This document shows positions 15,197 through 20,229 of a stretch of 32,000 nt of DNA, one piece after another (the first letter of the stretch is position 1; each line of letters begins with the position of its first letter). The position numbers and the translations under genes are program-made. The stretch comes from Candidatus Methylomirabilis limnetica. Its GTDB lineage: Bacteria > Methylomirabilota > Methylomirabilia > Methylomirabilales > Methylomirabilaceae. Location: positions 30,001-62,000 of the forward strand of contig NZ_NVQC01000016.1 of NCBI RefSeq assembly GCF_003044035.1. The letters run 5' to 3'. Below the pieces are notes generated by a model. The model made no database searches and was not told the DNA's origin. It worked only from the letters and a program-made list of their open reading frames with translations.

Positions 15197-15589
15197 ATGG
15201 GAAAGTCGATGACGTCGATGATGACGGGATTAGCGGTGATGTTCGTCGCGGGGCTCTCTGTCGGCTGGGCGCAGCAGGCCACGGTCACGCTCGTGTCGCC
15301 GAAGGATGGGGACGTCATAGGTTCCCGCATGGTGATCCAGTGGGAGTTCAAGCCGGCGGGGGAGGTCAACCACATCCATCTCTACCTGGACGGGGCCAAC
15401 CCGGGGCCACCGTTTGGGACCTCAATGGAACTCACGGGCCTCTCGAACGGGCCGCACATCGTCAGGATCGTCGCGGCGAATCCGCGCCACCAAGAGATCG
15501 GCCCTGAGGCCAGCGCGAAAGTGACTGTGCAGGGCGCGGCGGCGCCGACCACGCCACTGCCAGCCCCCAGGCGGAGCCGAGCGTACTAG
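15197..15589 (+). CDS. Secreted small beta-sandwich protein, DUF4399-like (family assignment tentative)
   Basis: 130 aa. Signal peptide MGKSMTSMMTGLAVMFVAGLSVGWA, then TLVSPKDGDVIGSRMVIQWEF...VNHIHLYLDG...LSNGPHIVRIVAANPRHQ, resembling the SP-x-DG ... H-x-H-L-x-x-D ... G-x-H pattern. AGGAGAG lies upstream of the ATG. Confidence 0.6.
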   Translation: MGKSMTSMMTGLAVMFVAGLSVGWAQQATVTLVSPKDGDVIGSRMVIQWEFKPAGEVNHIHLYLDGANPGPPFGTSMELTGLSNGPHIVRIVAANPRHQEIGPEASAKVTVQGAAAPTTPLPAPRRSRAY

Positions 15590-15776
15590 CTGCTGGGCTC
15601 CGAGGGACGCGGGGACCGGCTGAGCCCTCCGAATCCTGGGCGCCTCGTGACCCTCCTGTTCCTCGGCTCGCCTATCCTATGTTAAGCTGCCGTCCTCTGC
15701 TACGCCCGGCCTCTTCGGTCACACCCCCTCCTGTGGACTCCCCGGATGGCGGATTCGTGGTTGAAATCTACACCGC
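15261..15776 (+). repeat. Segmental direct repeat, copy 1 (most of the 15197 gene plus its 3' flank)
   Basis: 15261-15589 aligns without gaps to 17095-17423 (constant offset 1834). The first ~175 nt are identical, and the few substitutions cluster in the last third. The 3' flanks continue to match (ccggctgagccctccgaa..., cctcttcggtcacaccccctcctgtggactccccggatgg...) up to 15776 / 17708. Confidence 0.9.
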
Positions 15777-17094: not shown

Positions 17095-17423
17095 TCGGCT
17101 GGGCGCAGCAGGCCACGGTCACGCTCGTGTCGCCGAAGGATGGGGACGTCATAGGTTCCCGCATGGTGATCCAGTGGGAGTTCAAGCCGGCGGGGGAGGT
17201 CAACCACATCCATCTCTACCTGGACGGGGCCAACCCGGGGCCACCGTTTGGGACCTCAATGGAACTCACGGGTCTCTCGAACGGGCCGCACACCGTCAGG
17301 ATCATCGCGGCGAATACGCGCCACCAAGAGGTCGGACCTGAGGCCAGCGCGACGGTGACGGTGCAGGGCGCGGCGGCGCCGACCACGCCACTGCCAGCCC
17401 CCAGGCGGAGCCGAGCGTACTAG
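17095..17423 (+). pseudogene. 5'-truncated duplicate of the 15197..15589 gene, lacking the start codon, Shine-Dalgarno sequence and signal peptide
   Basis: Identity to copy 1 begins at the codons for GWAQQATVTL. The only upstream open frame (ORF 16965..17423) starts inside vapC in another frame and encodes no signal peptide. Confidence 0.7.
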
Positions 17424-17708
17424 CGGCGGGGCTCCGAGGGAAGCGGGGACCGGCTGAGCCCTCCGAAGCATGGGCGCCTCGCGACCCTCCTGTTCCTCGG
17501 CTACGCATCTCCTATTGTGCGCTGCCGTCCCCCGCGACACATCGTCGGGACAGGGGGACGCCGCGCGATGCTCGATCCTGCAGGGACGCGCGAACCGGCG
17601 AGTCTGCTGAGCGAGGTCGTATGGCCCACACACTGTACCGACCTCTTCGGTCACACCCCCTCCTGTGGACTCCCCGGATGGCAGATTTGTGGTTGTAATC
17701 TGCACCGC
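17095..17708 (+). repeat. Segmental direct repeat, copy 2 (with ~100 nt extra in the 3' flank)
   Basis: See copy 1. The extra material lies between gctgccgtcc... and ...cctcttcggtcac. Confidence 0.9.
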
Positions 17709-17924
17709 CAATCCCGCCAGTACGGCTCTCAATATGGCTCATTTTTTCCATTGACACCTATACAAGCTGAATGCTACAAGTCGGCTACTCAGTTCTATCC
17801 TTTTTGTCAAGGGAGAGGATGCAGACATGGCGAGTAGCGGGAACCTGCTTCTAGCCGGATCCGGCATCACGCCGAAGGCGAATACCGATATGGCCCTTTG
17901 GGGTATCATGAGCCCTGAAGGGCC

Positions 17925-18119
17925 GTGCTGCTTTCAGGAGACCTCCGCTCTCTGCTTCCCGATCGCATGGCGACAATGAAGACGGTCCGTGAAGATGGCT
18001 ATGACATCCGGACCGTCCAGGAGTTGCGTGGCCACAACGAGGTGAAGACAGCCATGATCTACACCCATGTGCTGAATCGAGGTGGAAAAGTGGTGAGAAG
18101 CCCGATGGACGGATTGTGA
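17925..18119 (+). pseudogene. intI: C-terminal remnant of an integron-type tyrosine recombinase (IntI-like)
   Basis: [41 protein letters not shown] matches the [13 protein letters not shown]-x-DV-x-TTMIYTHVL-x-x-GG-x-GV-x-SPLD C-terminus of integron integrases and retains the catalytic Tyr. Everything N-terminal of it, including the box I Arg and the H-x-x-R motif, is missing or degenerate. Confidence 0.65.
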
Positions 18120-18136
18120 ATAGGGTTGATGATTAT

Positions 18137-18308
18137 TTGGTGTGTTAGGCTGGCAGATCTTGCAGTTTAACCTCCCTTGAGGCACACGGACAGGACGACG
18201 GAAGTACAGGTGATAAAAGGGATTGCGAAAAAGCTGCATCACTGGAGTTGGCGTGTTAGGCTGACCCAACTGGCGTGTTAGGCCGGTCGGCCTAATCAAT
18301 AGTTGGGC
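18137..18308 (+). other. attI-like site: three direct TGG-Y-GTGTTAGGC-Y-G repeats, then an inverted pair and a GTTRRRY core
   Basis: GTTAGGC occurs at 18144-18150, 18255-18261 and 18277-18283. TTAGGCC-ggtc-GGCCTAA forms a perfect hairpin at 18278-18295. GCCTAAT-caata-GTTGGGC (core at 18302-18308) resembles the L/R simple site of attI. ACCCAAC (18264-18270) is complementary to the GTTGGG core, and the outer arms CTGACCC / GGGTCAG (18261-18267 / 18312-18318) also pair. Confidence 0.45.
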
Positions 18309-18426
18309 GTCGGGTCAGGGCGCCGTACGCTTTGGACCCTGTTCTAACCGTCAGTCAAGGATGAGATCCTGCGATGTGGAAGCTCATAGGTGTCGAGGAC
18401 CAGGCGCAACGCGGAGCTGGCTTAGT

Positions 18427-19050
18427 ATGCTGCCCATGAGCCGGGACCCCGCCGCCCCGCTGCCGCCCGAAAGCGCTCAACGGATTTCGCGAGAGGAGAT
18501 GAGCGAGCTGCCCATCCGGAGCTACGAGGGTTCGGTGCGCCTCGTTGCGGCGCCCGCAGACCTCCAGCGCGCGATGCATGACATCTGCCAGGAAAGCGTA
18601 GTCGGCTTTGACATCGAGACACGGCCCGCCTTCAGGCCCGGCGAGAGTTATCTCCCCTCCCTTGTGCAGTTCGCCACGGCAGGCGCGGTGTATCTCATGC
18701 AGGTCCAGCAGCAGGACTATTCCGCCGTGATGCAGGAGATCTTTTCGTCGGAGAAGATCACTAAGGCGGGCGTATCGGTGGCCGACGATCTGCGTAACCT
18801 GAAGAAGTTGTTTGAGTTCGAGGAAAGAGCGGTGGTGGATCTCGGCAAGGTTGCGAAGCGTCACGGCCTGAAGCAGACGGGCGTGCGCAATCTCGCAGGG
18901 ATTTTTCTCGGCACGCGAATCCCCAAGGGCGCGAAGACGACGAACTGGGCTGCGCACCGCCTGACGCCGCAGCAGATCGCCTACGCTGCGACCGATGCCT
19001 GGGCGTGCCGCGAGCTGTATCTCCGCTTCAAGCAGCTGAATTTGGTCTGA
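18427..19050 (+). CDS. DEDDy-type 3'-5' exonuclease domain protein (RNase D / WRN-exo-like); putative cassette 1
   Basis: VVGFDIETRP (ExoI), KAGVSVADDLRNL (ExoII) and YAATDAWACRELY (ExoIII with Tyr). The start is placed at 18427 (MLPMSRD...), giving ~207 aa. The ORF-track start 18361 is possible but gives an Arg/Cys-rich leader. Confidence 0.75.
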   Translation: MLPMSRDPAAPLPPESAQRISREEMSELPIRSYEGSVRLVAAPADLQRAMHDICQESVVGFDIETRPAFRPGESYLPSLVQFATAGAVYLMQVQQQDYSAVMQEIFSSEKITKAGVSVADDLRNLKKLFEFEERAVVDLGKVAKRHGLKQTGVRNLAGIFLGTRIPKGAKTTNWAAHRLTPQQIAYAATDAWACRELYLRFKQLNLV

Positions 19051-19082
19051 CGACCCGAGAACTCGGCGTCAGAGAAGGCGCC

Positions 19083-19161
19083 GCCCAACCATCAGTTACA
19101 CCGGAGCCAGGAAAGCGGCGCTTCGCTTGCTTTCCTGGCCCGGTGAACTGGGTCGTTAGAC
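19083..19161 (+). other. attC-like recombination site (79 bp)
   Basis: R'' is GCCCAAC (19083-19089, fits RYYYAAC). The left arm CAGTTACACCGG pairs with CCGGTGAACTG, leaving one unpaired A. The inner stem CCAGGAAAGC / GCTTTCCTGG is a perfect 10 bp. R' is GTTAGAC (19155-19161, fits GTTRRRY). The site lies exactly between two ORFs. Confidence 0.55.
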
Positions 19162-19188
19162 CGCGGAACGAAACACCGAAACCAAATC

Positions 19189-19911
19189 ATGAATACGGGC
19201 GCTTTCCTTGCCGATCAGCGGCGCTATTTCGTCGGCGCGTACGAGCAATTCTGTGCCTTTGGCGGACCCTGTGTGTACTTCCATCGCGAGTGCATTCGCG
19301 CGGGTGAAGTCGACTTCTTGTCTGACAGACACATCGAGATGCTTTACGCAACGCTCACCGCGTGGGGGATGCACCGGATGGGCGACACCGACACAACCAA
19401 GACGAAGTTGACGAACTGGGGCCCATTCCGGGACTCGCTGCGTGGATGCAGTGAAGAGCTGAGACCGCTGCAGGGGGTCGATCTGCTCAACCTCACAGCG
19501 CACGAGTACTCCGATGCCGTGTCGGCTCTCACGCCCTGCTATCGGAAGCTCAAGCTGTCGGTCTCCGATGCAACTATCGTCGTTAACTCGAAGGCGCTGT
19601 ACCACCTGTTGCCGCGCATGATACCGCCCATCGACCGCCAGTACACGGTCCGGTTCTTCAAGCAGTCGCCCGACACGTGGCGTGATGCCAAAGGCAAGTT
19701 CAGGGCGGTCATGCTGCCCGCTGGCATCGAGGCTCAGTTCCAGATGTTCCACTCGATTTGTCTCGGCGTGAAGGGCTTGGTCGACCACGTAGATCTCGCG
19801 CTGCTCGAGCACGAACTTCGCTCGAACAACGTGACACCACCCAAAGCGATCGACAATGCCATCGTCAACTTCGTCAGAATTACCTCGGGTGGCCGGCTGC
19901 CGGCGGTCTAA
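19189..19911 (+). CDS. Hypothetical protein, 240 aa, no family recognised; putative cassette 2
   Basis: Uninterrupted ORF with host-like G/C-rich third positions; the overlapping minus ORF 19156..19992 looks like a shadow. Its stop codon is embedded in GTCTAAC (19906-19912), the exact complement of the preceding R' box. Confidence 0.55.
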   Translation: MNTGAFLADQRRYFVGAYEQFCAFGGPCVYFHRECIRAGEVDFLSDRHIEMLYATLTAWGMHRMGDTDTTKTKLTNWGPFRDSLRGCSEELRPLQGVDLLNLTAHEYSDAVSALTPCYRKLKLSVSDATIVVNSKALYHLLPRMIPPIDRQYTVRFFKQSPDTWRDAKGKFRAVMLPAGIEAQFQMFHSICLGVKGLVDHVDLALLEHELRSNNVTPPKAIDNAIVNFVRITSGGRLPAV

Positions 19912-19990
19912 CATTGCATGCACCATAGGTAAAATAGGGACAGACACTATTATCGTGACAATTCGTGGTGTTCGGCGGTCATGATCGTGC

Positions 19991-20089
19991 ATGCCACGGA
20001 TTACCCGAATCGTTGCACCCGGCCACCCGTATCATGTGACGCAACGAGGGAATTATCGCCAGACGGTCTTTCGGAACGACAGAGATTCG
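19991..20089 (+). pseudogene. N-terminal stub of a REP-associated/IS200-like Y1 transposase (RayT-like)
   Basis: MPRITRIVAPGHPYHVTQRGNYRQTVFRNDRD matches the P-R-x-P-R-I-x-x-PG-x-P-x-HV-x-QRGN-x-RQ-x-VF start of this family. The rest of the ORF is Arg-rich nonsense lacking the HUH and Tyr motifs. Confidence 0.6.
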
Positions 20090-20229
20090 AATGCGCACGA
20101 TGACAGAGCGGCCACTGCGAAGAGACGGGTTGATCTGGTAGGTGCACAGGAAACTGGTGTTTGGAGGGGCGTGCAGTCTTTGCGGACTAGACGCGGGGAG
20201 AGCGGCGAATCGAGGCGATCTAACTCAGG

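Follow-up and report, generated by a model that had tools for sequence, protein, structure and literature searches.

Integrons in which the integrase gene (intI) points in the same direction as the gene cassettes have been named the 'inverted integron-integrase' group (PMC3575428), and this arrangement is scattered, i.e. paraphyletic, among the IntI lineages (Cury et al. 2016, PMC4889954). In clusters of attC sites lacking integron-integrases (CALIN), an intI pseudogene was found within 10 kb in 15 of 279 cases, and insertion sequence (IS) elements have been implicated in the decay (Cury et al. 2016, PMC4889954). Here we describe a locus on the forward strand of a 32,000-nucleotide stretch of the Candidatus Methylomirabilis limnetica genome (the window, to which all positions without a contig number refer; C35:30001-62000 of assembly G000, 2.55 Mb in 40 contigs, 99% complete). 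The RecA protein of this methane-oxidizing NC10 bacterium shares 89-91% identity with those of named Candidatus Methylomirabilis species. In a preliminary description, the locus had been read as a fossil chromosomal integron with intI co-oriented with its cassettes. This was borne out by the integrase stub, the attI region, both cassettes, the attC site and a severed R'' box, and each of these elements was put to a test capable of failing, which it passed. We conclude that the locus is very probably a degenerate sedentary chromosomal integron, with intI in the same direction as the cassettes. This kind of element is already known and no new mechanism is added by it, but its host lineage, NC10 (Methylomirabilota), is new for the kind; in the full-text literature on Methylomirabilis and integrons, only a table entry was found, listing a group IIC-attC intron in M. 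oxyfera.

The integrase gene of the locus is reduced to its 3' end. The open reading frame (ORF) at 17925-18119 (64 amino acids) had been noted for an integron-integrase C-terminal signature with the N-terminal part of the protein gone, and it matched positions 273-315 of the 315 positions of the TIGR02249 'integron integrase' profile with 61.1 bits. The score of the same ORF was 47.6 bits with the E. coli-type IntI equivalog and 28-31 bits with the XerA, XerC and XerD models. Only residues 22-64 are intI-derived, with nucleotide similarity to intI starting at ~17991 and a junction at ~17985-17991. The proposal that the ORF is an intI remnant was thus correct for these residues but not for the DNA upstream of the junction, which belongs to a small-gene segment. 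As defined by the profile and by nucleotide homology, the remnant occupies 17991-18119 (+ strand; the last 43 codons and the stop). Approximately 270 N-terminal codons are missing, and the IntI-specific extra domain (between patches II and III) falls in the deleted part of the gene. An intact intI, as expected of a functional integron, is not present at the locus (61 bits for the stub versus the TIGR02249 cut-off of 265 bits). At the nucleotide level, the stub is 74-75% identical to the intI 3' ends of two relatives, G011:C75 (an intact gene of 470 bits) and G039:C171 (G and C numbers designate genomes and contigs). Based on the twofold difference between IntI and Xer scores and on the homology to intact intI genes of congeners, the stub is predicted to derive from an IntI and not from a XerC/D-type recombinase.

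The segment from 17683 to ~17985 contains a small gene (~50-75 amino acids, MASSGNLLLAGSGITPKA...) that is preceded by a promoter-like site of the TTGACA type (~17745-17775) and has a paralogue at C11:292552-292815; it is the 3' part of this gene that is fused to the intI stub. The junction at ~17985 is common to two other species of the genus. In one of them, G006:C29 is 90% identical over 17683-18136, and in the other, G007:C85, the stub directly follows the same Big_7 gene as in the window. The truncation would therefore be old and inherited. The shared junction and Big_7 neighbor also bear on the possibility that stub, attI and cassettes were acquired together as a finished block through horizontal transfer, for example on an island, rather than decaying in place. 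In agreement with such transfer, IntI proteins of this clade are 75-80% identical across phyla, G039, which belongs to another family of the order, has a 75%-identical stub with attI, and the locus is flanked by repeats, a toxin-antitoxin pair and an arsenic-resistance operon. A transfer of this kind would not, however, account for the same junction next to the same neighbor in two other species, which indicates that the already truncated platform was inherited vertically at least since their common ancestor, and we consider acquisition as a block very unlikely.

IntI acts on the bottom strand of attC in its folded form, recombining it with a double-stranded attI at G/TT, and attI is where newcomers enter. 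In the window, the DNA that follows the stop codon of the stub has the features of such a site. The region, 18120-18308 (+ strand), contains three direct repeats (DR1, 18138-18152; DR2, 18249-18263; DR3, 18271-18285; repeat TGGYGTGTTAGGCYG) that conform to the pattern TGG[CT]GTGTTAGGC[CT]G, starting at 18138, 18249 and 18271, with GTTAGGC cores at 18144, 18255 and 18277. They are followed by an inverted L-like box (GGCCTAA, 18289-18295), TCAATA and an R box (GTTGGGC, 18302-18308). The spacer between the stop codon of the stub and the R box is 185 bp. The repeats and boxes were found where they had first been described, and a pattern search of the 2.55-Mb genome detected TGG[CT]GTGTTAGGC[CT]G nowhere else. 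The same layout after the intI stop was observed in at least 10 relatives, both behind intact intI and behind several other stubs: one core-like repeat ~30 bp past the stop, a spacer of ~110 bp, one or two more repeats, a terminal ...(T)CAATAGTTRRRY (..TCAATAGTTRRRY) and then unrelated DNA. When the window is compared with G039:C171 and G011:C75, the identity of 74-75% extends from 17991 through the stop codon and the spacer to the GTT at 18302-18304 and no further (the G011 contig ends there). The crossover is thus predicted to lie between G18302 and T18303, and 18120-18308 is the predicted attI, located on the 3' side of intI in the 'inverted integron-integrase' arrangement and adjacent to a cassette inserted in GTTRRRY, as judged by sequence comparison. 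Its simple site and that of attI1 agree in 14 of 20 positions and have the same spacing (GGCCTAATCAATAGTTGGGC versus GCCCTAAAACAAAGTTAGGC; the attI1 sequence was confirmed at ≥99% identity in at least 4897 plasmids). The palindrome at 18264-18308 within attI was also considered as a mini-attC and rejected (12.3 bits, E 0.69, minus strand, with the covariance model R1 described below).

The first cassette occupies 18303-19155 (+ strand) and is composed of a DEDDy-type 3'-5' exonuclease ORF (18427-19050, or from the ATG at 18361; PF01612, E 8.8e-20) and an attC site. The nearest relatives of the exonuclease gene are found in metagenome-assembled genomes (MAGs) of Burkholderiales/Betaproteobacteria and in one MAG of Chloroflexota. 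In blastn, the cassette is 91.8% identical to L058, from a proteobacterial MAG (CAVTZJ010000002.1), over exactly 18302-19159; L110 matched over 18302-19103, and L059, from the Chloroflexota MAG (JBLMXV010000038.1), over 18299-19077. In both L058 and L110, the GTTGG of another attC lies immediately before the match, and a further cassette comes after it in L058. Beyond the two boundaries, the adjoining 60 nucleotides show 17% and 28% identity between the window and L058, which is the level expected by chance. Since the match ends at the boundaries and the flanks are unrelated, 18303-19155 is a mobile cassette inserted at attI. This comparative evidence is independent and decisive. The exonuclease cassette is 92-94% identical at the nucleotide level between Methylomirabilis, the proteobacterial MAGs and the Chloroflexota MAG, and the gene is present in many Burkholderiales at 60-90% amino acid identity.

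The attC of the first cassette is a 79-nucleotide imperfect palindrome at 19083-19161 (+ strand), bounded by R'' GCCCAAC and R' GTTAGAC. It reads GCCCAAC-CATC-AGTT[A]CACCGG[A]GCCAGGA...TCCTGGC-CCGGTG-AACT-GGGTC-GTTAGAC, with spacers of 4 nucleotides between R'' and L'' and 5 nucleotides between L' and R'. The palindrome and its bounding boxes agree with the preliminary description, in which, however, a single unpaired base was assigned to it; there are two, A19098 and A19105, both in the 5' arm (T on the bottom strand in each case). In line with this, the bottom strand of 19083-19161 folded with DNA parameters to -28 kcal/mol with two single-base bulges on the 3' arm, as expected for attC. The site therefore has the boxes, the L''/L' pairing and the extrahelical bases of an attC, and it has an ortholog in L058. 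It is also in register with 12 sites of relatives, taken from cassette arrays behind intI in G008, G009, G011 and G016, in which the extra bases are at positions 16 and 23. A geometric attC scanner found ~0.3 such sites per Markov-shuffled genome. A covariance model (R1) was built from nine attC sites of other genomes, all relatives; it is lineage-specific and distinct from the model of IntegronFinder. In its alignment, 78.6% of cells pair, versus 31.6-36.1% when the partners are slid, and double changes occur in 19 of the 26 pairs. R1 matched 19083-19161 over its full length on the + strand with 45.6 bits (E 3.5e-9), so that the match to an attC covariance model that had been called for was obtained with R1, and it gave no other significant match in the window. 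It also detected sites on which it had not been trained, always on the intI strand, among them four located after the intact intI of G018:C37 and nine on G009:C27.

These results also answer the objection that the hairpin is a repetitive extragenic palindromic (REP) element or a terminator and that the stub is of XerC/D type, so that the likeness to an integron would be coincidental. In favor of this objection, the hairpin is GC-rich and intergenic, with co-oriented genes on its two sides, and the stub has only 43 residues, which come from the most conserved part of tyrosine recombinases. However, blastn detected the hairpin only once in the genome, so that it does not belong to a REP family, and no T-run follows it; Rfam gave no match in the window. 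Moreover, the R1 match is strand-specific (9.3 bits on the minus strand), the homology with foreign cassette arrays begins and ends at R boxes, and the stub, in addition to its IntI score, runs on into a conserved attI. The R1 match, the foreign copies of the first cassette and the attC of L139/L140 (see below) refute this explanation, which we regard as practically impossible.

The second cassette, 19156-19924 (+ strand), is truncated at its 3' end and encodes a 240-amino-acid all-alpha protein (ORF 19189-19911). Its stop codon lies within GTCTAAC at 19906-19912. On two groundwater contigs, L139 and L140, a 73%-identical homolog starts just past GTTAGAC and has its stop within the GTCTAAC of an intact attC (44.4 bits with R1). 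The window sequence GTCTAACATTGCATGCACC (19906-19924) aligns with GTCTAACATGGCATGCAGC, the first 19 nucleotides of the L139/L140 attC, with a blastn match to 19922. The interval 19906-19924 (+ strand) is thus the left end of the attC of the second cassette, comprising R'' GTCTAAC, the spacer and the start of L'', and the lone R'' box is what remains of a severed attC, since a 3'-truncated miniature inverted-repeat transposable element (MITE; 19925-20157, + strand) begins at the next position and ends the array. The GTCTAAC with the stop codon had correctly been recognized as an unpartnered R'' box, but the 'transposase stub' reported after it is this truncated MITE. For both ORFs, the earlier designation as cassettes was supported by homologs elsewhere that are bounded by attC at the same points, i.e. 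an ORF with attC occurs in different contexts with the same G/TT boundaries, and the mobility of both cassettes is established by these comparisons.

The protein encoded by the second cassette, rather than the platform, is the least understood item of the locus. It has more than 1000 homologs with 57-79% identity, and 35 aligned members of the family (~240 amino acids) contain 58 invariant columns. No match to it was found in Pfam, NCBIfam, PADLOC, PHROGs or the PDB sequences. Its AlphaFold (AF2) model is all-alpha, with a pLDDT of 91.4 and a pTM of 0.89, and a Foldseek search of this model against PDB and BFVD returned no match. In two unrelated contigs, a homolog directly follows a gene for a Mrr_cat restriction endonuclease.

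Full copies of the MITE are ~305 bp long and at least 42 copies, 82-92% identical, are present in the genome. Its terminal inverted repeats (TIRs) are ATAGGGACAGACACTATT/AATAGTGTCTGTCCCTAT, and the sequence between them resembles the N-terminus of a RAYT/IS200-like transposase (PGHPYHVTQRGN). The window copy lacks the last ~70 bp; in full copies, the inverted TIR is located ~70 bp beyond the point at which the window copy ends. Two MITE copies lie ~19-20 nucleotides into the left arm of an attC, namely the window copy and another at C22:~98500-98850, with GCCCAACACCGCGTCCAGCC at its border, and these are the only two insertions into attC arms confirmed by homology. The two insertions hint that the element prefers attC or cassette arrays, but such a preference was rejected: a bare RYYYAAC occurred 20-50 nucleotides upstream of 3 of 97 TIR ends, versus 1.7 expected, which is not significant. 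Past the MITE, an arsenic-resistance operon is located on the opposite strand.

The genome has no intact intI. One copy, at C37:648-1516, is interrupted at ~676 by an IS21-like element and also contains a frameshift and a TAA, C4:7875-8231 is an intI fragment, and the full-length recombinase matches on C2 and C22 are Xer-like. The IS21-like element, one copy of which severs the N-terminus of the C37 pseudogene, occurs at least eight times, for the most part at the ends of contigs (C37:1-1520 and the termini of C6, C8, C9, C14, C15, C24 and C26), and terminates in ...CTAGCGAAATCA. An origin of GTGTTAGG from the terminal repeat of this element, in whose end next to the C37 intI it is present, was rejected as a chance 8-mer match; the repeated motif of the element itself is GTGGGYYCCTTTTRCTC. 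In relatives from the genus and order, the intact orthologs that had been sought were found: G011:C75, G018:C37 (469.5 bits, followed by four co-oriented attC hits), and G011:C32 and G029:C206 (~475 bits). An intI above the cut-off is present in only a minority of genomes (6 of 41), and the genus has several intI copies per genome. At no fewer than eight loci in Methylomirabilales, the 5' part of intI is lost while the last 45-150 codons and attI are kept, and stubs in the order retain attI wherever examined. Such 5'-truncated stubs with the 3' end kept recur in G039:C171, G039:C162, G036:C23, G020:C116, G016:C6 and G040:C121, and in the present genome at C4:7875-8231 and C35:47988-48116.

As the genome contains no intact intI, we infer that the array is now immobile, i.e. 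frozen unless an integrase is supplied in trans. Such a supply is the basis of another explanation, according to which the locus, far from being a fossil, is an orphan attI-cassette array still used by an integrase of another integron in the cell or of an incoming mobile element, with cassettes exchanged after the truncation of intI. It is favored by the observation that the junction is common to three species and yet the DNA past attI differs (the exonuclease and the 240-amino-acid gene here, a DUF1330 gene in G007), by the intact and conserved attI repeats and simple site, and by the multiple intI copies per genome in the genus. In addition, the first cassette, ~92% identical to proteobacterial copies, is no more diverged than the neighboring genes of congeners (89% for Big_7), although the identity of a selected coding cassette is not directly comparable with that of a pseudogene. 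An older, longer array from which different cassettes were lost would, however, account for the differing content equally well, G007 has a degenerate attI-like region, and an intact intI is missing here; we therefore find use in trans unlikely. It is similarly doubtful that the retained stubs with attI may still work, either as landing pads for other integrases in trans or as a promoter/leader for the first cassettes. If they did, the local array would have gone on acquiring cassettes after the death of its own integrase, for example the exonuclease cassette shared at 92% nucleotide identity with Proteobacteria.

For the preferred reading, a degenerate chromosomal integron, the identities of the parts and the crossover point come from the comparisons above, and the order of events is inferred as follows. 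In the active phase, IntI would have bound to attI, just past its own stop codon, at the direct repeats and at the simple site, and joined the folded bottom-strand attC of incoming cassettes to attI at G/TT (18302/18303). The exonuclease cassette would thereby have taken first place, with the 240-amino-acid cassette shifted to the second position; attI being the entry point of new cassettes, the exonuclease cassette would also be the most recent arrival. Later, unrelated DNA probably replaced the 5' 85% of intI, in an event common to two congeners. Insertion of the MITE into the attC of the second cassette and loss of the array beyond the MITE would complete the sequence.

Several observations weigh against this reading. 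A consensus scan of attI (18120-18360) detected no sigma-70-like Pc promoter; in some relatives, TTGACA-N17-TAgAaT-like sites are present in the equivalent attI spacer. With one complete attC (19083-19161) and the 19-nucleotide remnant (19906-19924), the locus does not reach the number that defines a CALIN, i.e. at least two attC sites within 4 kb without intI. In most sites of relatives, the first bulged base, A on the top strand in the window, is instead a top-strand G (bottom-strand C), and the orthologous attC of L058 likewise has a top-strand G there. Class 1 attC sites have G as the bottom-strand extrahelical base. Finally, the training sites of R1 were picked by the same geometric scanner that also finds the attC of the window, which makes the model not fully independent.

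Elsewhere in the genome, R1 matched at least ~20 further sites (25-59 bits), which are scattered, with some in CALIN-like clusters of two or three (C33:130651, C24:11629, C35:20191, C35:24876, C37:134055/134779, C38:60267/61559/62173, C3:1898, C26:5018, C29:592/3276 and C37:2590). This whole-genome search scored 150 of 848 candidates and missed the site of the window itself, so the resulting list is incomplete. Simple counts of GTTAGGC, GCCCAAC and similar motifs were discarded as an indicator, these motifs being common in the genome and uninformative alone. Also rejected were five picks of the geometric scanner (C2:42682-42796, C5:42970-43095, C11:139056-139172, C11:187943-188012 and C33:100541-100683), which belong to a separate, attC-mimicking repeat family of palindromic/tandem GTTCAAC/GTTGAAC arrays with a 14-nucleotide period. 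Upstream of the stub, 15261-15776 and 17095-17708 form a direct duplication of ~0.5 kb (97% and 93% identity) that contains a Big_7-domain gene with its downstream region and brackets a MazE/PIN toxin-antitoxin pair. A 71-nucleotide downstream piece of this duplication recurs at C36:5353-5416.

The locus presents the decay of a chromosomal integron into an orphan cassette array base by base, with the stub, the attI, the first cassette with its exact boundaries and the MITE-cut attC all preserved. Integron activity is documented by it for the NC10 phylum, as is a cassette common to Methylomirabilis, Proteobacteria and a Chloroflexota MAG at ~92% nucleotide identity. To our knowledge, few attI sites have been described for integrons with a co-oriented intI, and the comparison with relatives defines an attI family for such integrons. 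Its value lies in annotation, in the evolution of CALIN origin and in providing a source of a conserved 240-amino-acid cassette protein without known fold relatives.

When the predicted attI is compared with the class 1 site attI1 (DR2-DR1-L-R), the core-like direct repeats upstream of a simple site, the L...R spacing and the G/TT crossover are common to both. The window contains three repeats, one of them ~110 bp away from the others, and its predicted attI lies past the 3' end of intI, whereas attI1 is upstream of a divergent intI. With the integrons of the inverted-integrase type from Treponema and others (PMC4889954), the locus shares a co-oriented intI, an attI next to the end of intI, and cassettes made of an ORF and an attC with RYYYAAC/GTTRRRY boxes, extrahelical bases and non-resistance or unknown functions; it differs from them in having only 43 codons of intI, two cassettes and an NC10 host. 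Similar to CALIN near intI pseudogenes, it is a cassette array left after the loss of the integrase and disrupted by an IS or MITE. Unlike in most CALIN, however, attI and the integrase stub are still attached to the array, and its origin by decay is therefore directly visible.

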